Positions 218 through 36,135 of a stretch of 36,303 nucleotides of DNA are shown here, piece by piece. The stretch lies in the UHGV virus genome UHGV-1321070. One strand, given 5' to 3'. This stretch comes from a virus. Every line of letters starts with the position of its first letter. The first letter of the stretch is position 1. The translations under genes and the position numbers were made by a program. The notes under the pieces are model-generated. The model searched no databases. It was not told where the DNA came from and saw only the letters and a program-made list of their open reading frames with translations.

Positions 218-607
218 TTACTCTTTTTTCTCCGTATCTGCATCGGGTTCATCAGCAAATAGCTTGCCCTGCATCCGATCCAGTTCTTCTTTTCTTACCC
301 GCTTAACCACGCTGTAGACCCACTGAAGCGAAACACCAAATTTGCGGGCCAGTTCGTGGTGGTTGCGTCCGTTAAACTCCCTGAAGATTTCCCGGTCGCG
401 CTGACTGACCTTCCATACCATGCCCATCGGGAAATAAACGTTTTGCCCGCCCCAGACCTGCATCATTCGGTTCGCGACGGCCTGACCAATCTGGTCGGCA
501 ATTGCGGGCTCAATATCAATAATCTCGCGAACGGTCTCAGAGGTATGCTGTGCCAGTTCCACCAGGAGTTCCGGCCCTTTACTTCGAAACTGATTCAGGT
601 CGCTCAT
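218..607 (-). CDS. mor: Mor/C-family transcriptional activator (middle/late gene activator)
   Basis: 129 aa; pattern GGQNVYFP.G...RDREIFREFNGRN..ELARKFGVS...VY..VKRVR matches the conserved core of Mu Mor/C as I recall it; last gene of the early operon, as in Mu. Confidence 0.8.
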   Translation of the reverse strand: MSDLNQFRSKGPELLVELAQHTSETVREIIDIEPAIADQIGQAVANRMMQVWGGQNVYFPMGMVWKVSQRDREIFREFNGRNHHELARKFGVSLQWVYSVVKRVRKEELDRMQGKLFADEPDADTEKKE

Positions 608-2941: not shown

Positions 2942-3132
2942 TGCGAGTCCTCCCTGTCAGGGCGGGAGAATTCCATGACGGGCACGTCTGCCGAAAAATG
3001 CTGGCTGCAGTACGGGCAGACCAGGGTGACGCGTACCGCAGGGATGTGGTATTTACCGGACATCACGGCGATGGCGCTGTGAAAACGCAGGGCTGTTATA
3101 TCCCTCTCGCACTGAATACATTTAAATATCAT
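2938..3132 (-). CDS. Zinc-ribbon protein (CxxC...CxxC), 64 aa
   Basis: Cys pairs at C5/C8 and C39/C42 (KCIQCER ... VCPYCSQ); similar in size and Cys pattern to small phage zinc fingers such as Mu Com, but no adjacent mom-like gene. Confidence 0.4.
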   Translation of the reverse strand: MIFKCIQCERDITALRFHSAIAVMSGKYHIPAVRVTLVCPYCSQHFSADVPVMEFSRPDREDSQ

Positions 3133-3229
3133 GATTTAATTCTCCTCTGTTTCCGGCGTGCAGAAGCCCGCGGCGCTGACGTCGGAATAAAAAAGAAAAT
3201 GTTTTTATTAAATAATTAACGTGGTGTGT

Positions 3230-3760
3230 TTACTGCACATCCTGCTCAAAAGGAATTATTGAAAAATCCTCAATGTCGCTTTTAATGGAAATACCGGGAA
3301 TATTTTTCACGGCCTCTTTTTCATTCAGGATAGCGTCTTTATTTATTTCCTCTTTTACACGAATAAAGCGCTCAAGCCCCAGACGTCTCAGTAATTCAAT
3401 AACATTATCCGCCCCACGGATACTGACTGATGGCGGACGGTTTCGCCACTGCACCTCGCCGGTGGTGAGGTTAGCGAACTTCACCTTCCCGTTGCCGGTC
3501 AGTTCATCACGGTGTGCCTCACACCATGTCTGAATACCGGACTGCAGTTCGGCCATGCGTTTTTTCAGGCTCTCGGTGAGCGGGGCATAACGTGCGGTGA
3601 TATCGCCAATGGCGTCATTCATTTCTGTTTCAGCCCTGACCAGTTCACGTTGTGCGTCACCGAGTAGTCTGATTCCCTCAATGACCTCTTCACGTGTCCC
3701 CGGCACCCAGAGTGCTGCTGCGGCCTTGATACGTTTTGCACCTTTTGTACTTTTTGCCAT
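3230..3760 (-). CDS. gam: Host-nuclease inhibitor Gam (DNA end-binding, Ku-like)
   Basis: 176 aa; strong similarity along the length to Mu Gam as I recall it (ETEMNDAI...WCEA.RDELT..GKVK.ANL.TG.V.WR.RPPSVSIRG...RLGL.RFIR.K.EINK.AIL...DFSIIPFEQ). Confidence 0.9.
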   Translation of the reverse strand: MAKSTKGAKRIKAAAALWVPGTREEVIEGIRLLGDAQRELVRAETEMNDAIGDITARYAPLTESLKKRMAELQSGIQTWCEAHRDELTGNGKVKFANLTTGEVQWRNRPPSVSIRGADNVIELLRRLGLERFIRVKEEINKDAILNEKEAVKNIPGISIKSDIEDFSIIPFEQDVQ

Positions 3761-7934: not shown

Positions 7935-8306
7935 TTACAAACGACTACCTGAAATAACTCGTTGGTTGATTTCGTTAATACGATCCTGTGCACGCGCCAT
8001 CTCGTGACTGTGAGCCATGGCGATCTGTAGTAACTGGATTCCCGGTGCGAAACGTCCGTTCTCTAATTTCATGGCCAGTCCCTCTTCAATAAGGGTATTA
8101 AGTGCTCGATTGATATTCGCCGGGGACTCCCCCAGGGCTGATGCCAGTTCACCGTTAGAAACACCGTTCAGAGCATGACCGCGTAGAGCTTTGAGTACAC
8201 GTAGGATGCGGGTCCCAGAACTGGAAATATTTACTTTACTCATGTCACATTTCCATTTTTGCAATATGTGATAACCTGTTGCATATGTGGAAAATTTATG
8301 CCGCAT
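7935..8306 (-). CDS. Winged-helix DNA-binding protein (MarR/IclR-like HTH)
   Basis: 123 aa; segment GTRILRVLKALRGHALNGVSNGELASALGESPANINRALNTLIEEGL is a typical wHTH. Overlaps the ner-like gene by 11 bp; an internal start (MSKVNISS) is possible. Confidence 0.45.
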   Translation of the reverse strand: MRHKFSTYATGYHILQKWKCDMSKVNISSSGTRILRVLKALRGHALNGVSNGELASALGESPANINRALNTLIEEGLAMKLENGRFAPGIQLLQIAMAHSHEMARAQDRINEINQRVISGSRL

Positions 8307-8484
8307 TTGACGTGGGTTTTAATCCCAGTTTTACGGCAATTTCATGGGCTTTGCCGTAACGAGCTTTGGTCTGTCCATTGAGAACACGATAGACCTCATT
8401 GCGGCTGTAGCCGTGTTCTTCGGCCCAGCGGGTAAACGTGATACCACGCTGACGGAAGAGATTTTTAACTTGTTCGGAAGTCAT
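8296..8484 (-). CDS. Ner/Cro-like small DNA-binding regulator (first gene of early operon)
   Basis: 62 aa HTH protein (RWAEEHGYSRNEVYRVLNG) at the head of the leftward early operon, divergent from the repressor gene: the position Ner occupies in Mu. Confidence 0.55.
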   Translation of the reverse strand: MTSEQVKNLFRQRGITFTRWAEEHGYSRNEVYRVLNGQTKARYGKAHEIAVKLGLKPTSNAA

Positions 8485-8534
8485 TGTTGTCTCCTTTGTT
8501 GATGCAATGATGTTTGTTTTATATGTGATAGATT

Positions 8535-8996
8535 ATGAGAACTATTGTTCTCATTGTCAATGAGGTTTATGTGAATTTTGATTCTCTTTGCGCGTCGCGG
8601 TTCAAAGCTGAGCGTTCGCGGTTATCACTCAAGCAGGCTGAAGTAGCAGCCCTTTGTGGCGTTTCAAGAGAAATGTGGGGGAAATATGAACGAGGGGTTG
8701 CTGTTCCCGGAGGTGAGTTACTTGCAGCCTTTGCAAGAATTGGGGCCAATGTACAGTTCATTCTTACCGGGGAGTCATCAGGTATAACTTTATCACGTGA
8801 TGAAATGGAGTTACTGCAGCACTACCGGCAGGCACCATTACAGGTCAAAGGTTCAGTTTTGTCGGCCTTGACTACTGGCTCCTCCAGAGAACGGGCGGAA
8901 CAGGTTATTCATGGAGATGTTCTGGGGAATGTTATCAAAGGTAACGTAACCATAGGAACAGGTGGAATAATGAACAAAAATACCAAGAGAAGATGA
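8535..8996 (+). CDS. XRE-family HTH repressor (candidate immunity repressor c)
   Basis: HTH LSLKQAEVAALCGVSREMWGKYERG; divergent from the early operon. The true start may be the GTG at 8571, which follows a GAGG RBS and would place the palindrome upstream of the gene. Confidence 0.65.
   Translation: MRTIVLIVNEVYVNFDSLCASRFKAERSRLSLKQAEVAALCGVSREMWGKYERGVAVPGGELLAAFARIGANVQFILTGESSGITLSRDEMELLQHYRQAPLQVKGSVLSALTTGSSRERAEQVIHGDVLGNVIKGNVTIGTGGIMNKNTKRR
8537..8552. promoter_or_regulatory. Candidate operator: perfect palindrome GAGAACTATTGTTCTC
   Basis: 6-bp arms GAGAAC/GTTCTC around TATT in the divergent ner-like / repressor control region. Confidence 0.45.
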
Positions 8997-9979
8997 GTAA
9001 AGAGAAGCAAACAGTTAACGGGGATGTGGGTAACGTTGTCAGCGGTGATGTTACCATTCATAACTATTCTGCTGACATACTTCCTTCGGCCCAGCAACCA
9101 ATTTCGTTGCTGCAAAAACGCGATTTACACAGATTGATGGATGAATTGGTTGATCTGGGGGAAAGTAAGCGCGAGCTATGGATGACGATCCACACGAAAC
9201 TTAATACCAAAACAGTTAATGAAATGACTGCGGCTGATTATCATGGTGCGGTTGAGATCCTTCAGAGATATGCACAACAGATCCAGAATATGAAGGACTG
9301 TAATCTTCTGGTCAGCAAAATAATGGCGCTTACTGACCCTGGGTATCGTCTTGACCGTGACAGATACTGTCTGAAGCATTTCGGTACAACCCATCTTAAA
9401 GGCCTAGACAAAGAGCAGTTGCAGGCTGTGTTTGGTTATTTTGATGATCTGCTGAATATTCGTGATGAGAGTAAAACTCTATCACCTCCATCGGAAAGCG
9501 GTGCAAAATCAGTCGCAACTGTACCAACCAGAAGCCGGAAGCCTCATGTAGTAGTGTTGGGGGGAGTGTTAGTTCTTGTAGCAATATTTTTCGTGGGAAT
9601 GATTGTGTTCGCTGGTAAATGGGGAAATGCCAAAGCAGTAGCTTCTACTGAAACCAGCGTTTTTAACATTAAAACCAACGATAAAATAATAGAAGATTCC
9701 ATCCCCGCACTGCGCAGCATGTTTCCAGGGTTAAATAAGTACTCAGATGATTTCCATTCGGTTTCAAGCTACAAGCAAAAAACGGGCTGGCATACCCTTA
9801 AATTTACTGTATCAGCAAAGGCATCCGTCCCCGAAAATTATAGTGTTAAGGGCAAGGTTTGTTACATTAACATAAGCCCTGATGGTAGTTATGCTCGGGT
9901 TTTGACTGCTCCATGTCGTTCACTGCTACTTGATCAGCAAAGCACTCCTGACAGTAAATACCGTTTTATTCTTAAATAG
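8993..9979 (+). CDS. Single-pass membrane protein of unknown function (328 aa), translationally coupled to the repressor
   Basis: Start ATG overlaps the repressor stop (ATGA). One TM helix (VVVLGGVLVLVAIFFVGMIVFAG) separates a ~185-aa N-terminal domain from a ~120-aa C-terminal domain; visibly AT-richer than the backbone. Confidence 0.55.
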   Translation: MSKEKQTVNGDVGNVVSGDVTIHNYSADILPSAQQPISLLQKRDLHRLMDELVDLGESKRELWMTIHTKLNTKTVNEMTAADYHGAVEILQRYAQQIQNMKDCNLLVSKIMALTDPGYRLDRDRYCLKHFGTTHLKGLDKEQLQAVFGYFDDLLNIRDESKTLSPPSESGAKSVATVPTRSRKPHVVVLGGVLVLVAIFFVGMIVFAGKWGNAKAVASTETSVFNIKTNDKIIEDSIPALRSMFPGLNKYSDDFHSVSSYKQKTGWHTLKFTVSAKASVPENYSVKGKVCYINISPDGSYARVLTAPCRSLLLDQQSTPDSKYRFILK

Positions 9980-10060
9980 AAAATAACAGCTGAATTACCA
10001 TGGGATCAGAAAAAAGACAAAGGCGGCATCATGCTGCGTTCTGAAATTTTAATGTAAAAG

Positions 10061-10651
10061 GTGATGAACATGGCAGGGATTCAGGTTATCGCAGGAAGTT
10101 TTCCTAAAGGGTGGGCAAGCATGGGGTTCGGTACCATCGTGTTTGCCAAAAAACCAAAACAAGGCTTTCCTGAAAATATTGTATTAAATCTGAAAGAAGA
10201 GCTTTTATCGATTGAACTTGCGGATAGTGAAGAGGAAAGCCGTATAGGTAAGGCGGCAGGCGCAGGTTTGCTTGGTGGATTAATCTTTGGTGGTGCAGGG
10301 TTGGTCATTGGAGGTTTGCTTGGTGCGGCGGACAAGACGAAAAAAACTATCACTTTTAAGGCAATGTTTACGGGAAATAGGTTACTTCTGGCTAAAACAG
10401 ATTCAAAAACTTTTGTAAAACTTCAGTCAATTGCTGCTGATAATGCCCATAACGCATCTGTAATCAACATGAAGCAAACTAACAGGGGCGATGTTTCTTC
10501 TCGTAAACAACTAACAGAAAATCCACAGCAGCAAGACTTACCTGCGCCCGCTACAACAGTAAAAATGACTGCCAAAGATAAGTTAGAATCGGCTCTTGGG
10601 CTGGGAATCATCGTTATAGCTGTTTGGGCAATAATACACTTCTTTTTTTAG
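10061..10651 (+). CDS. Glycine-zipper membrane protein of unknown function (196 aa)
   Basis: GKAAGAGLLGGLIFGGAGLVIGGLLGAA glycine-zipper segment plus a C-terminal TM anchor (LGLGIIVIAVWAIIHFFF); same strand as the repressor; followed by a terminator. Confidence 0.5.
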   Translation: MMNMAGIQVIAGSFPKGWASMGFGTIVFAKKPKQGFPENIVLNLKEELLSIELADSEEESRIGKAAGAGLLGGLIFGGAGLVIGGLLGAADKTKKTITFKAMFTGNRLLLAKTDSKTFVKLQSIAADNAHNASVINMKQTNRGDVSSRKQLTENPQQQDLPAPATTVKMTAKDKLESALGLGIIVIAVWAIIHFFF

Positions 10652-10653
10652 TG

Positions 10654-10678
10654 CAGCCCTTCAGGGCTGTTTCTGTTC
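10654..10678 (+). terminator. Rho-independent terminator-like hairpin between convergent genes
   Basis: CAGCCC-TTCA-GGGCTG stem-loop followed by TTTCTGTT; sits 3 nt after the TAG of the 196-aa gene and just past the stop of the convergent P-loop gene. Confidence 0.55.
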
Positions 10679-10688
10679 AGGAGGTATC

Positions 10689-11165
10689 TTAAGGATTATC
10701 CGGGGCGTTTTCCTGTTTGCCGTACTTCGGAGACGAACAACATTCTGTTGGCTGACCGGTGAGTTTACGTAACTCCTTCATGAGCAGCTCCTGATCGTAA
10801 ACTGTCATCAGTGCCGCAATGGTGGCATGCAGTGCATCGGGCAGTATCCAGGGTTGCCGGCCCGTGGGGCATATAACATCCAGCAGCTCATTCGTCCGAC
10901 AGATACGCTCCTCGCCGTATGACAACAGGCCCTGTCCCGTGTATTCCTCCAGCCTGATCACTGTGCCACCCCGTGGCTTCTGCCAGGTCGTCAGATCTTC
11001 GCCATTCATACGGCGCTCATTCTCCACGTCAGCAGCATCGACAATGACGCTGTTTCCGAGTTCCTGTTTCACCATCTCTTCTATCCGCGCCAGTACGTAA
11101 CTTTTACCGCTGCCCACAGGACCGGACACAGTGACAGTGATGACCGGATTCAGTGTGTGCGTCAT
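10689..11165 (-). CDS. Small P-loop NTPase of unknown function (158 aa)
   Basis: Walker A GPVGSGKS near the N-terminus and an acidic stretch (VIVDAADVE) that could be Walker B; convergent with the two preceding genes, divergent from the lysis operon. Confidence 0.5.
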   Translation of the reverse strand: MTHTLNPVITVTVSGPVGSGKSYVLARIEEMVKQELGNSVIVDAADVENERRMNGEDLTTWQKPRGGTVIRLEEYTGQGLLSYGEERICRTNELLDVICPTGRQPWILPDALHATIAALMTVYDQELLMKELRKLTGQPTECCSSPKYGKQENAPDNP

Positions 11166-11223
11166 ATCGTATTCTCCTCTGTGAATAATTCATCGTTTAT
11201 CCTGCACATCCCGTATCCCCGGC

Positions 11224-11246
11224 TCTCTTAACGCGCTTTAAAATCC
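11224..11246 (+). promoter_or_regulatory. Conserved late-promoter motif, copy 1 (upstream of lysis operon)
   Basis: CTCTCTTAACGCGCTTTAAAATC, matching the consensus CTYCTTAA-N4-CTTTAAWATC also found at 24608 and 30698; about 50 bp upstream of the 11296 start. Confidence 0.5.
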
Positions 11247-11295
11247 TTCGCGCCCTGTATTTGTGATGCTGTCTCCACCAGATAAGGAGACACAC

Positions 11296-11646
11296 ATGAA
11301 AAACCTGAAAAAATTCATTCCCCCTGTTAAAAAACCTCGCCTCAGCGGCTGGCTGCTGACCTCAGTGCTGTTGCTGGGCACCATCGCTCTGGTCTCACCA
11401 CAGCAGCTGCCTGTTGTGATCTACAAGCTGGCACTCATCACGCTGGCAGCAGTGCTGGGTTACTGGCTTGACCGTTCGCTCTTCCCCAAAGCCCGTCCCG
11501 GTCAGTACCTGAAACATGACGACAGGCTGATGGCTGAAGGGCGTTTCCCGGTACAGACCGGCCTTCACCTGGTGTTTTCTGCTGCGTTAATCCGCCGTGC
11601 ACTGATTGTTGCAGCGGTCTGCCTGGCTGTTGCGATGGGGCTTTAA
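11296..11646 (+). CDS. Putative holin / lysis membrane protein
   Basis: Start moved to the ATG preceded by AAGGAGA; about 116 aa with three hydrophobic helices; immediately precedes the endolysin. Confidence 0.45.
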   Translation: MKNLKKFIPPVKKPRLSGWLLTSVLLLGTIALVSPQQLPVVIYKLALITLAAVLGYWLDRSLFPKARPGQYLKHDDRLMAEGRFPVQTGLHLVFSAALIRRALIVAAVCLAVAMGL

Positions 11647-11648
11647 TC

Positions 11649-12389
11649 ATGAACTGGCCGCAGATCACCTGGATTGTATGCATGTCCCTGAAACTGGCTT
11701 TCGAAGCCTTTCGGGTCTTCATCAGAACCGAACGCCTGTCAGTCCGCGCCGGGACCTTTCTGGTTCATATGGCATGGGTATTCTTTGTCGCAATGTTGCT
11801 CTGGTGTGGCGGCTTTTTTAGCCAGGCATGCGCAGCACAACCTCCGCAGGCTGCGCTGCAGTATCGCGATGATGTGATCCGTAATGCCCGGCTTGAATGG
11901 GGACTGTCTGCGCCGGTGGCCGATTTCGCCGCGCAACTGCATCAGGAAAGCGGCTGGCGACCTGATGCGATCTCGCCGGCTGGCGCTCAGGGACTGGCGC
12001 AGTTCATGCCTGCCACTGCCGACTGGATAAGCCAGTTGATACCGATGCTGAGCAGTCGTGAGCCGTTTAATCCGGCATGGGCTATCCGGGCGCTGGTCAG
12101 CTATGACCGCTGGCTGTGGCAGCGTGTCAGCGCCGCCAGTGACTGCGAGCGTATGGCCATGACACTGTCGGGCTATAACGGTGGTCTGGGCTGGGTACAA
12201 CGGGACAGGCGGCTTGCATCACAGAAAGGTCTGGACAGCACCCGCTGGTTCGGACATGTCGCCACGGTGAATGCCGGACGCAATGCGGCCAGCTGGCGGG
12301 AGAACCGCCATTATCCGCAGCGCATCCTGCGCGAACTGGCACCGCGATATCTCACATGGGGAGGCAGCAGTTGTGTGGCATCTGGTTAA
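11649..12389 (+). CDS. Endolysin, lytic transglycosylase (SLT domain)
   Basis: SLT catalytic region LHQESGWRPDAISPAGAQGLAQFMPATADW with the conserved E-S and AQGL.Q motifs; N-terminal hydrophobic segment. Confidence 0.75.
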   Translation: MNWPQITWIVCMSLKLAFEAFRVFIRTERLSVRAGTFLVHMAWVFFVAMLLWCGGFFSQACAAQPPQAALQYRDDVIRNARLEWGLSAPVADFAAQLHQESGWRPDAISPAGAQGLAQFMPATADWISQLIPMLSSREPFNPAWAIRALVSYDRWLWQRVSAASDCERMAMTLSGYNGGLGWVQRDRRLASQKGLDSTRWFGHVATVNAGRNAASWRENRHYPQRILRELAPRYLTWGGSSCVASG

Positions 12390-13023: not shown

Positions 13024-13346
13024 CACTGCAGGTTGAATTCTGGACGGTGGTGAGTTTTCTGCTCACCTTCATGGGGTTTGTGGGAGGGCTCGCCAAATGG
13101 TTGTTCAGTAAAACAGAAGAACGCCAGGCGGCACGATTCGCCTCCCTTGAACAGGCCCTGCAACAATCCGCCTCCAACTGGGGCGAGCTGGAAAAAGAAT
13201 TTATGCGATTTAAAGCGGATTTACCGCTGAATTATGTCCGTCGAGAGGATTATATCCGTGGCCAGACAGTCATTGAGGCCAAACTGGACGCGCTTTATAA
13301 CAAACTGGAAGTGGTACAGCAGTACCGCAATACCGGAGGTCAATAA
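13020..13346 (+). CDS. Small membrane protein (108 aa), possible lysis accessory
   Basis: N-terminal TM helix (FWTVVSFLLTFMGFVGGLAKWLF) then a helical soluble region; start overlaps the Rz stop. Confidence 0.4.
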   Translation: MTLQVEFWTVVSFLLTFMGFVGGLAKWLFSKTEERQAARFASLEQALQQSASNWGELEKEFMRFKADLPLNYVRREDYIRGQTVIEAKLDALYNKLEVVQQYRNTGGQ

Positions 13347-35017: not shown

Positions 35018-35491
35018 TCACGCCGCCCTCACGATATAGTTAAACGCGATATTGCGGGGGCGGGTTATGTTAAAGAATGCTCCGTTTAATTCGGCTTTTG
35101 CGCGACTGTTTGTTCCACCCAGCATTGCGTACCACAAATAATCGCTACGGTAATTCCCCGCAAACACCTTATCGCCGCCATAGTCAATATTATTTCCGTT
35201 ACTCATGTACGAGATATCAAGCGAAGAATCGTTATCGTCATGACCGCCGACCAGTGTACCTTTCTGCCATGAAAGCAACTTACGCCCCTCGTCAATCTTG
35301 CGCCCGTCGTCCCATCCACGGATAAACTCACCGCGTAAATCGGGAAGACGGAGGGTCGGGTAGACTCTGGCCAGAACAGGATATTGTTCTTTGGTGAACG
35401 TAGCTCCGTTGCACTGTAACCAGCCTGCTGGCGGTGTGGCGGTGGGCCATGGAACCGGTACACCAACAGGCAATGCAGAGCCTTCCCCCAA
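35018..35491 (-). CDS. Alternative tail-fibre C-terminal cassette (promoterless; fused to the fibre gene after inversion)
   Basis: Minus-strand ORF whose first ~65 aa are encoded by the right inverted repeat and are identical to the fibre segment; it then diverges to a different tip ending RPRNIAFNYIVRAA (current tip ends RPRSIALNYIVRAV). Confidence 0.7.
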   Translation of the reverse strand: MGEGSALPVGVPVPWPTATPPAGWLQCNGATFTKEQYPVLARVYPTLRLPDLRGEFIRGWDDGRKIDEGRKLLSWQKGTLVGGHDDNDSSLDISYMSNGNNIDYGGDKVFAGNYRSDYLWYAMLGGTNSRAKAELNGAFFNITRPRNIAFNYIVRAA

Positions 35492-35496
35492 ACCAA
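35298..35496. repeat. Inverted repeat, right arm (199 bp, perfect)
   Basis: Exact reverse complement of 33880..34078. Confidence 0.85.
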
Positions 35497-35508
35497 CGTT
35501 TATCTCTC
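35483..35508. other. Gin/Hin-type recombination site, right
   Basis: TTCCCCCAAACC-AA-CGTTTATCTCTC; the inner half-site and core are shared with the left site, the outer half-site is unique; lies 55 bp upstream of the invertase start. Confidence 0.7.
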
Positions 35509-35562
35509 AAATCCTCCCCACATTATCTCAGTACTTTAACCACTCAAAAGGGAGTATTTTTA

Positions 35563-36135
35563 ATGCTGATTGGCTACATACGTGTGTCAACAAATGACCA
35601 AAACACAGATTTGCAACGCAATGCATTAATGTGCGCAGGATGTGAACAGATTTTTGAGGACAAAATGAGCGGAACCAAGTCGGAACGACCAGGCCTGAAA
35701 CGCGCTTTAAAGTGCCTTAAAAGAGGGGATACATTGGTGGTCTGGAAGCTGGATCGGTTGGGTAGAAGAATGAAACACCTCATTGCTCTCACAGAAGAGC
35801 TACGCGCAAAAGGTGTCAATTTTCGCAGTCTGACGGATTCAATCGATACCAGCACTCCGATGGGAAGGTTCTTTTTTCATATGATGGGTGCACTGGCAGA
35901 AATGGAGCGTGAACTGATAGTTGAGCGCACGCTGGCAGGACTGGCTGCTGCGCGAGCACAAGGGAGAGTTGGAGGACGTCGCCCGAAACTGACGAAGGAG
36001 CAGCATGAGCAGATCGCAAGATTGCTCCAGAAAGGGTATGACAGAAAGCGGCTGGCAATTATCTATGATATTGGACTGTCAACGATCTACCGCTATCACC
36101 CTGTTGGGACTGTCATAACGCAACCTGAAATGTAA
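35563..36135 (+). CDS. Serine DNA invertase of the Gin/Cin/Pin/Hin family
   Basis: Start at the ATG after AAAAGGGAG (track ORF begins 129 nt upstream); MLIGYIRVSTNDQNTDLQRNAL ... VVWKLDRLGR ... SLTDSIDTSTPMGRFFFHMMGALAEMERELIVERT is near-identical to the invertase family, with a C-terminal HTH. Confidence 0.9.
   Translation: MLIGYIRVSTNDQNTDLQRNALMCAGCEQIFEDKMSGTKSERPGLKRALKCLKRGDTLVVWKLDRLGRRMKHLIALTEELRAKGVNFRSLTDSIDTSTPMGRFFFHMMGALAEMERELIVERTLAGLAAARAQGRVGGRRPKLTKEQHEQIARLLQKGYDRKRLAIIYDIGLSTIYRYHPVGTVITQPEM

Follow-up and report, generated by a model that had tools for sequence, protein, structure and literature searches.

We analyzed a small gene in the UHGV virus genome UHGV-1321070, a stretch of 36,303 nucleotides (hereafter, the window) that represents a BcepMu-like transposable prophage, not Mu. 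The gene, located on the minus strand at 10689..11165, encodes a protein of 158 amino acids (aa) with a Walker A motif and belongs to a family that was found in phages and prophages only. Members of this family share an N-terminal mini P-loop domain that is followed, in proteins of Salmonella and E. coli prophages, by modules in shuffled order; the window protein, with a single such module, has the minimal architecture and, judging from its split alignment with a longer allele, is a deletion derivative. The gene is dispensable for the phage and is not a partner of the membrane protein module encoded next to it. The explanation that fits best, which we put forward tentatively, is that the product is an accessory protein of the lytic cycle involved in phage-host conflict. 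Features of the gene and its product:

10689..11165, minus strand: P-loop gene encoding the 158-aa protein of N-C architecture (RefSeq WP_000149906.1, PHROG 3787)
10941..11165, minus strand: N-terminal mini P-loop domain (residues 1–75), the sole part kept family-wide, also found as free-standing phage proteins of 71–90 aa
11100..11123, minus strand: Walker A motif GPVGSGKS (residues 15–22)
10944..10964, minus strand: putative Walker-B-like strand TVIRLEE (residues 68–74), assigned by reading of the motif
10755..10922, minus strand: helical “cap” module C (residues 82–137, SYGEERICRTNELL...PDALHATIAALMTVYDQELLMKELRK), with predicted helices at 83–98, 110–122, and 125–136

The first-pass annotation of this DNA had pointed out an open reading frame (ORF) of 158 codons with the GPVGSGKS signature on the opposite strand, flanked by a terminator hairpin on one side and by the first late promoter on the other. 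This arrangement is confirmed, and the ORF is a genuine gene, beyond a chance reading frame. It begins with ATG preceded by a good Shine-Dalgarno (SD) sequence (GAGGAG, 11174..11179, minus strand, 8 nt 5' of the start codon); many Escherichia coli chromosomes hold a 100% identical copy, annotated as WP_000149906.1, “ABC transporter ATPase”; the product matches PHROG 3787 with E = 2.1e-107 and 359 bits (residues 1–157 against profile positions 1–157 of 242); and dN/dS against three alleles with 73–92% protein identity is 0.23–0.31 (Nei-Gojobori), the N-terminal part and residues 76–135 being alike in this respect. The GC content of the gene (54–57%) is like that of the phage backbone, and the holin/SLT lysis cassette starts divergently from it at 11296. 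The protein had been regarded as an orphan, which it is not: the gene was found in 583 of 5,426 complete E. coli genomes (570 of these at ≥80% coverage), that is, in about one in ten, including ST131, and very many Salmonella genomes encode relatives, which number in the hundreds. There is no Pfam entry for this common family.

Exhaustive profile search against 1.84 billion representative proteins (E ≤ 0.001) retrieved 65 proteins, and the matches outside E. coli were nearly all limited to profile positions 1–75. These matches are of two kinds, namely, proteins of 200–364 aa with unrelated C-terminal parts and stand-alone proteins of 71–90 aa that stop directly after the TVIRLEE-type motif. 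A second, indexed search yielded 253 relatives, chiefly Salmonella “hypothetical proteins” of 182–370 aa. A detectable homolog is present in only 3 of the 50,697 deposited phage genomes, and the P0068 query gave no matches in viral contigs. In the family alignments, G20 and K21 are invariant, and G15, S22, I28, L32, E50 (with R51), P64, T68, L72, and E74 (numbering of the window protein) are near-invariant, with G15, S22, and E74 conserved in at least 90% of diverse members.

To describe the architectures, we used ten reference modules, N and A through I. At least 64 architectures were recognized in 162 proteins; N is invariably first, and modules A–I are shuffled after it. Module C, the only one that follows N in the window protein, is seen again at the very C-terminal end of many Salmonella relatives, and the resulting N-C architecture is also the one found in intact 141-aa alleles. 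None of the modules could be assigned to a Pfam family or a defense model, and some match other PHROGs without an assigned function. In one BcepMu-like phage (L022, 6001..6749), and at the corresponding genomic position, an 88-aa ORF that consists of the N-domain overlaps (ATGA) a 161-aa ORF with modules A, B, and C; this split implies that the N-domain is functionally linked to the modules and yet is an independent folding unit. By profile comparison, the window protein belongs to PHROG 3787, which it matches over its full length, and which distant stand-alone members also match through their N-domain. The PHROG profile, to which no function is attached, corresponds to the 242/247-aa allele, and the window protein lacks its last ~85 positions as a consequence of the deletion described below.

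Sequence motifs suggest a P-loop in the N-domain, with a clear Walker A and a plausible Walker B, but this similarity does not extend to the level of any family. GPVGSGKS at 15–22 is followed by a helix (21–39) in both AlphaFold2 (AF2) models. The strand preceding Walker A (8–14) appears in the low-confidence first model only, and DSSP calls none in the confident model. The Walker B candidate, TVIRLEE (68–74, ending in E74), was recognized by motif only; the more obvious candidate, IVDAAD with D43, is not conserved in the family. No three-layer α/β/α fold with a mostly parallel sheet of five or more strands was found. The AF2 model built from a 12-sequence alignment was unusable (pLDDT 50); with 73 sequences, residues 11–70 were modeled with pLDDT of 87–93 and the C-terminal part with 55–74. 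In this monomer model DSSP detected no sheet, comparison with solved P-loop structures gave no match, and the sole structural neighbor was an 82-aa viral homolog in BFVD. No sequence match in Pfam, NCBIfam, PADLOC, or PDB extends beyond strand 1, the P-loop, and helix 1, and none passes the cutoff; for the window protein, the allele from Escherichia phage PhiKM, and long relatives alike, the first three of these collections produced only sub-threshold matches at the level of Walker A.

Like members of the P-loop NTPase superfamily, the N-domain runs from a hydrophobic strand through GxxGxGKS and an amphipathic helix to a further, putative hydrophobic strand that ends in Glu. The unit in this family, however, spans ~70–75 residues with about three strands, whereas known P-loop members have five or more strands and exceed 130 residues. 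Among the better PDB matches of the N-domain profile are two engineered minimal P-loop proteins, 6c2u (“phosphate-loop protein”; E = 0.0019) and 9jix (“De Novo Designed ATPase PL2x4_2”; E = 0.0007). These are similarly small and have the same strand-P-loop-helix layout, but they are artificial, only ~40 residues are aligned, and the E-values are weak. Prototypes of the 6c2u type reportedly bind phosphate ligands as oligomers. Should the 70–75 residue domain indeed bind or hydrolyze nucleotides, no known natural P-loop unit would be smaller, and it would be nature's equivalent of the engineered minimal P-loop proteins that serve as models for the origin of this fold.

More specific assignments were rejected. 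The protein had been judged too small for a AAA+ or ABC ATPase, and no such family fits. ABC_tran is not among the seven Pfam families that match the full 158-aa protein at E ≤ 0.1; with the 82-residue N-domain as the query, it reaches E = 0.033 and 15.2 bits (cutoff 25) over residues 4–49 only. NCBIfam ABC models score 14–15 bits against cutoffs of 266–875, and the LSGGQ signature is absent from the sequence; the RefSeq name “ABC transporter ATPase” derives from the Walker A motif alone. The initial suggestion of a minimal kinase-type P-loop fails because matches to kinases are at noise level (guanylate kinase, 12.9 bits against 263; uridine kinase, 12.5 against 180; the PDB guanylate kinase match has E = 0.5) and D43 of the DxD-like motif is not conserved. 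The name “KAP family NTPase,” given to fragments in databases, corresponds to a score of 14.6 bits against a cutoff of 20 over residues 4–43, and the hydrophobic insert is absent; like the ABC label, this name is misleading. Kinship to the AAA_22/ExeA-like ATPase of the phage itself was rejected as well, given that the P-loop protein shows no similarity to it.

The origin of the 158-aa form can be traced to a junction at the 3' end of the gene:

10689..10715, minus strand: deletion junction and by-product tail (..QENAPDNP*), where approximately codon 153 of the 247-aa allele is joined to the 3' end of a 71-aa gene

When compared with the locus that carries the 247-aa allele (L003), the window matches down to 10700, and the stretch 10715..10670 corresponds to the 3' end of the 71-aa gene of L003 together with bases beyond it. 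Where the two matches overlap, there is a 16-nt microhomology (CAGGAA.A..CCCGG in the window and CAGAAAATCGCCCCGG in L003). The tail ..QENAPDNP* corresponds to the last codons of the 71-aa gene read in another frame and supplies the final six residues. The split match with its microhomology and the shifted-frame tail indicate that the 158-aa allele is a derivative of the 247-aa allele produced by a deletion of ~855 bp, with loss of one C-terminal module and of the 71-aa gene. Another locus (L025) has the same junction and the next 19 bases and diverges from 10670, which implies that the low-GC cassette on this side of the gene joined an already shortened allele. In addition, the gene is an intragenic mosaic relative to PhiKM (L001): codons 76–135 are identical at the DNA level, whereas codons 1–75 differ at 21 positions (dS 0.22), so that recombination takes place at the boundary between the N- and C-domains as well. 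Within the stretch that is deleted in the window allele, a 133–134 aa ORF has been called opposite the 247-aa allele in two loci (L003, 6720..7121; L024, 3857..4261, EC958 WP_000972294.1) and has ~25 bases in common with the P-loop gene at the latter's 3' end.

On its 3' side, the gene converges with an operon that includes a repressor-like gene and two membrane protein genes (8535..10651) and is closed by the following feature:

10653..10670, plus strand: terminator-like hairpin followed by a T-run, closing the convergent repressor/membrane operon and forming the right edge of the low-GC cassette

The hairpin is located 18 nt past the stop codon of the P-loop gene, and no U-tract is present on the strand of that gene. 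The cassette (8537..10669, GC 40–46%) encodes a 153-aa helix-turn-helix (HTH) protein and membrane proteins of 328 and 196 aa and ends with the terminator. Comparison of the window with PhiKM shows 98.3% identity from 13000 down to 10701, a break, and resumption at 8536 at 82% identity; the cassette has thus been swapped in relative to PhiKM and lies outside the P-loop gene's own system. The N-terminus of the 328-aa single-pass membrane protein (PHROG 10002) shows a sub-cutoff NCBIfam match (E = 2.9e-12) to the flagellar regulator Flk, and the 196-aa protein (PHROG 12025) contains a Gly-zipper. The cassette is probably expressed in the lysogen along with the repressor, which makes it a candidate for superinfection exclusion.

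It had been proposed that the P-loop protein is a partner or antagonist of this membrane module, and that co-occurrence of the two in other prophages be checked. The P-loop gene is neither partner nor antagonist of the module, and co-occurrence is not obligatory: of the complete E. coli genomes, 97 carry the full membrane module, compared with 583 that carry the P-loop gene and 636 that carry the lysis cassette (≥80% coverage). The majority allele (242/247 aa, in about 450 genomes including ST131 EC958) is followed by the same-strand 71-aa gene and a Dam methylase gene; the 141-aa allele has yet another set of neighbors; and downstream of a diverged 158-aa allele (83% identity) there are a 126-aa gene, Dam, a 175-aa gene, and a repressor, the membrane genes being absent. 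Conversely, E. coli 503025 (L023) has the HTH and 328-aa genes, with a 203-aa gene and a DUF2441 gene in place of the 196-aa gene, and lacks the P-loop gene; its homology to the window restarts no earlier than 11229, 67 bp before the holin gene begins. Independence of the gene from the module follows from the different neighbors found elsewhere, the occurrence of part of the module without the gene, and the difference in GC content; the genome counts, the absences in both directions, and the cassette boundary at 10670 likewise speak against a two- or three-gene system that would include the module (8535..10651). The practical consequence for the window is a negative one, namely, that the P-loop gene should be analyzed apart from the membrane module.

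Among deposited phages, the closest to this element is PhiKM, a member of the genus Bcepmuvirus. The minus strand of the window encodes a Mor activator, GemA, Gam, an ExeA-like AAA_22 ATPase, and an rve transposase, the regulators are a pair of ner-like and IclR-like proteins, and the plus strand encodes a holin, SLT, a Mu-gp27-like small terminase subunit (TerS), the large terminase subunit (TerL), and a Mu portal. Because the element is BcepMu-like, canonical Mu, against which the gene had been described as an addition, was an unsuitable reference. BcepMu has no P-loop homolog and encodes three unrelated plus-strand genes (gp18–gp20) at this position, between repressor and holin.

BcepMu-like phages have an accessory (“moron”) slot at this same place, bordered by the repressor/ner-like switch and by the holin gene, and its contents vary strongly, including Dam methylase, repressor variants, membrane proteins, and DUF2441. 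The suggestion of a moron is supported to the extent that the gene is part of the moron-like accessory region of a prophage. In the E. coli and Salmonella relatives, in contrast to BcepMu with its three unrelated genes, the P-loop gene is the steadiest occupant of the slot, always at the holin-side edge and, in the BcepMu-like elements that carry it, invariably back to back with the holin gene. That the phage can dispense with the gene is shown by L023 and BcepMu, both of which lack it. It is the size of the domain and its modularity that are unusual; the locus itself is ordinary for its prophage lineage.

The P-loop and holin genes share a short divergent intergenic region with several conserved elements:

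11166..11295, no strand assigned: divergent intergenic region of 130 bp common to the P-loop and holin genes, with the SD sequence of the P-loop gene and conserved blocks
11199..11205: block ATCCTGC, conserved in six diverged loci
11228..11243: quasi-palindrome TTAACGCGCTTTAAAA, conserved in six diverged loci and located roughly midway between the two start codons
11271..11291: inverted repeat GTCTCC-N9-GGAGAC, overlapping the holin SD sequence, with conserved arms and a variable loop in six BcepMu-like loci

Scanning of 11166..11295 with the sigma-70 consensus gave no promoter-like match, and an Rfam scan of 8000..12000 gave no family matches. The TTAACGCGCTTTAAAA block and all sequence to the right of it are kept in L023, which has no P-loop gene, and both therefore belong to the late lysis promoter. 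A common activator-dependent divergent promoter is plausible, and the block is a candidate site for the Mor-family activator encoded at 218..607. The idea that TTAACGCGCTTTAAAA marks several late promoters was rejected because the matches at 13285 and 35697 lie within coding sequences, one of the two in the GLKRALK motif of a resolvase, and the apparent enrichment is no evidence. The inverted repeat could be an operator or a translational hairpin; a guessed −10 element would put most of the 5' arm upstream of the transcript. An SOS-controlled antirepressor was considered and dropped, as no CTG-N10-CAG LexA box was found in the intergenic sequence upon inspection by eye.

Outside the BcepMu-like elements, the family is encoded in varied contexts. 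The stand-alone form encoded by Yersinia, Acinetobacter, and metagenomic HK97-like or P22-like phages is found 0–2 genes from TerS and adjoins an HNH endonuclease gene. In large phages, homologs are among early or DNA-metabolism genes: in L018, the homolog adjoins an NAD-dependent ligase gene, with Acb2/Tad1-like and Sequestin-like genes near, and in other large phages, it is located beside DUF7941 genes. Vibrio phage 1.101.O (L049, MG592473) encodes an 82-aa stand-alone homolog (2983..3231) with thymidylate synthase and DHFR genes on either side, separated by 10-nt gaps. A DNA adenine methyltransferase is encoded 2 kb upstream in this phage, the sole context that hints at nucleotide metabolism.

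The explanation that we prefer, while rating it somewhat short of an even chance, is that the gene encodes a dispensable accessory protein of the lytic cycle that would combine a nucleotide-binding mini P-loop with shuffled, target-binding modules, with phage-host conflict as the best-fitting setting. The N-domain would fold as a strand, GxxGxGKS, a helix, a strand, a loop containing E50-R51, W61, and P64, and a strand ending in the Walker-B-like Glu74, and it most likely binds, and may hydrolyze, a nucleoside triphosphate. Because 70–75 residues are too few for a complete P-loop fold, the N-domain probably acts as an oligomer or with a partner. Residues 82–137 would form a three-helix cap module, and the helical modules inserted or appended in the relatives probably bind targets. 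With its location at the edge of a hypervariable accessory region, back to back with the late lysis/packaging operon, and with no sigma-70-type promoter upstream, the gene is probably expressed in lytic growth, and the homologs in large, probably lytic phages argue for a lytic-cycle role. The most likely role would be in phage-host or phage-phage conflict, for example, counter-defense, rather than in the core life cycle. A constant domain combined with shuffled modules at an accessory edge is the pattern expected of a conflict gene, which makes the family a reasonable candidate for counter-defense screens.

Several considerations weigh against this assignment. No study of a family member turned up in literature searches by accession, by PHROG number, and for minimal P-loops of phages; the neighborhoods differ from phage to phage (terminase/HNH, thymidylate synthase/DHFR, DNA ligase, Dam) and do not converge on a single process; modular shuffling is also compatible with non-conflict roles; late expression is deduced solely from gene position; and the window allele, being one module short, could be partly disabled. 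A more specific proposal, possible but doubtful, is that the N-domain is a natural free-standing Walker-A/Walker-B unit of ~70 residues, below every characterized P-loop NTPase in size, with a site completed by an oligomer or partner, and that it would serve as the constant engine of a shuffled anti-defense family, acting, for example, through sequestration or hydrolysis of a nucleotide signal or through nucleotide-dependent locking of a defense protein.

As an alternative, a helper in late-phase DNA handling, be it packaging, HNH-assisted terminase cleavage, or DNA/nucleotide metabolism, would account for the stand-alone homologs close to TerS and beside HNH in several unrelated phage types, for the position of the gene next to the operon running from lysis to TerS/TerL in BcepMu-like phages, and for the thymidylate synthase/DHFR genes in Vibrio phage 1.101.O, the DNA ligase in L018, and the same-strand Dam gene after the common allele. 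We nevertheless consider it unlikely: the gene is missing from BcepMu and from the functional-looking L023, such extreme C-terminal shuffling is not typical of proteins docking on the conserved machinery of packaging, and the stretch between lysis/HNH genes and TerS is a common location of accessory genes. It is improbable that the window gene is a decaying remnant, disabled by the deletion, with an ORF that would persist only owing to its young age or to its place beside the late promoter. The tail is indeed an out-of-frame by-product of the ~855-bp deletion, and other damaged forms exist, such as a 182-aa allele lacking residues ~51–124 and many short fragments. Still, the N-C form has the architecture of the intact 141-aa alleles and represents the core that many Salmonella proteins have in common, the breakpoint falls within a linker past module C, and 158-aa alleles with 83–97% identity are found in different prophage backgrounds, so that this form has persisted and spread; the dN/dS values given above also speak against decay, although they were measured mostly along lineages that include full-length alleles.

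Even less probable is a function in defense or superinfection exclusion, in concert with the neighboring HTH and membrane module or in opposition to it. The gene is convergent to this lysogen-type operon (a repressor-like gene and two membrane proteins), the constant N-domain with variable C-modules may recall fused sensor-effector defense proteins, and there are weak Walker-A-level PADLOC matches to mad8, SngB, and HerA. These matches, however, are far from significance, the gene occurs without the module and part of the module without the gene, with the counts given above, the GC content is mismatched, the cassette boundary at 10670 abuts an already deleted allele, and homologs are encoded by large, probably lytic phages. 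To a housekeeping-type enzyme, an ABC transporter ATPase or a nucleotide kinase, we give next to no credence, because the data contradict it. Database names (“ABC transporter ATPase,” “KAP family NTPase,” “uridine kinase,” and “thymidylate/uridylate kinase”) and sub-threshold matches to ABC_tran, guanylate kinase, and cytidylate kinase point in this direction, but the matches span only ~30–45 residues (strand 1, P-loop, and helix 1) and are far under the curated cutoffs, the ABC signature, the LID, and the NMP-binding region are all absent, and the conserved domain comprises 75 residues in a phage-only family.

Near the right end of the window, an ORF at 35434..36135 contains a motif (..RPGLKRALKCLKRGDTLVVWKLDRLGR..) similar to those of Gin/Hin-like serine invertases, which suggests an invertible tail-fiber segment, as in Mu.

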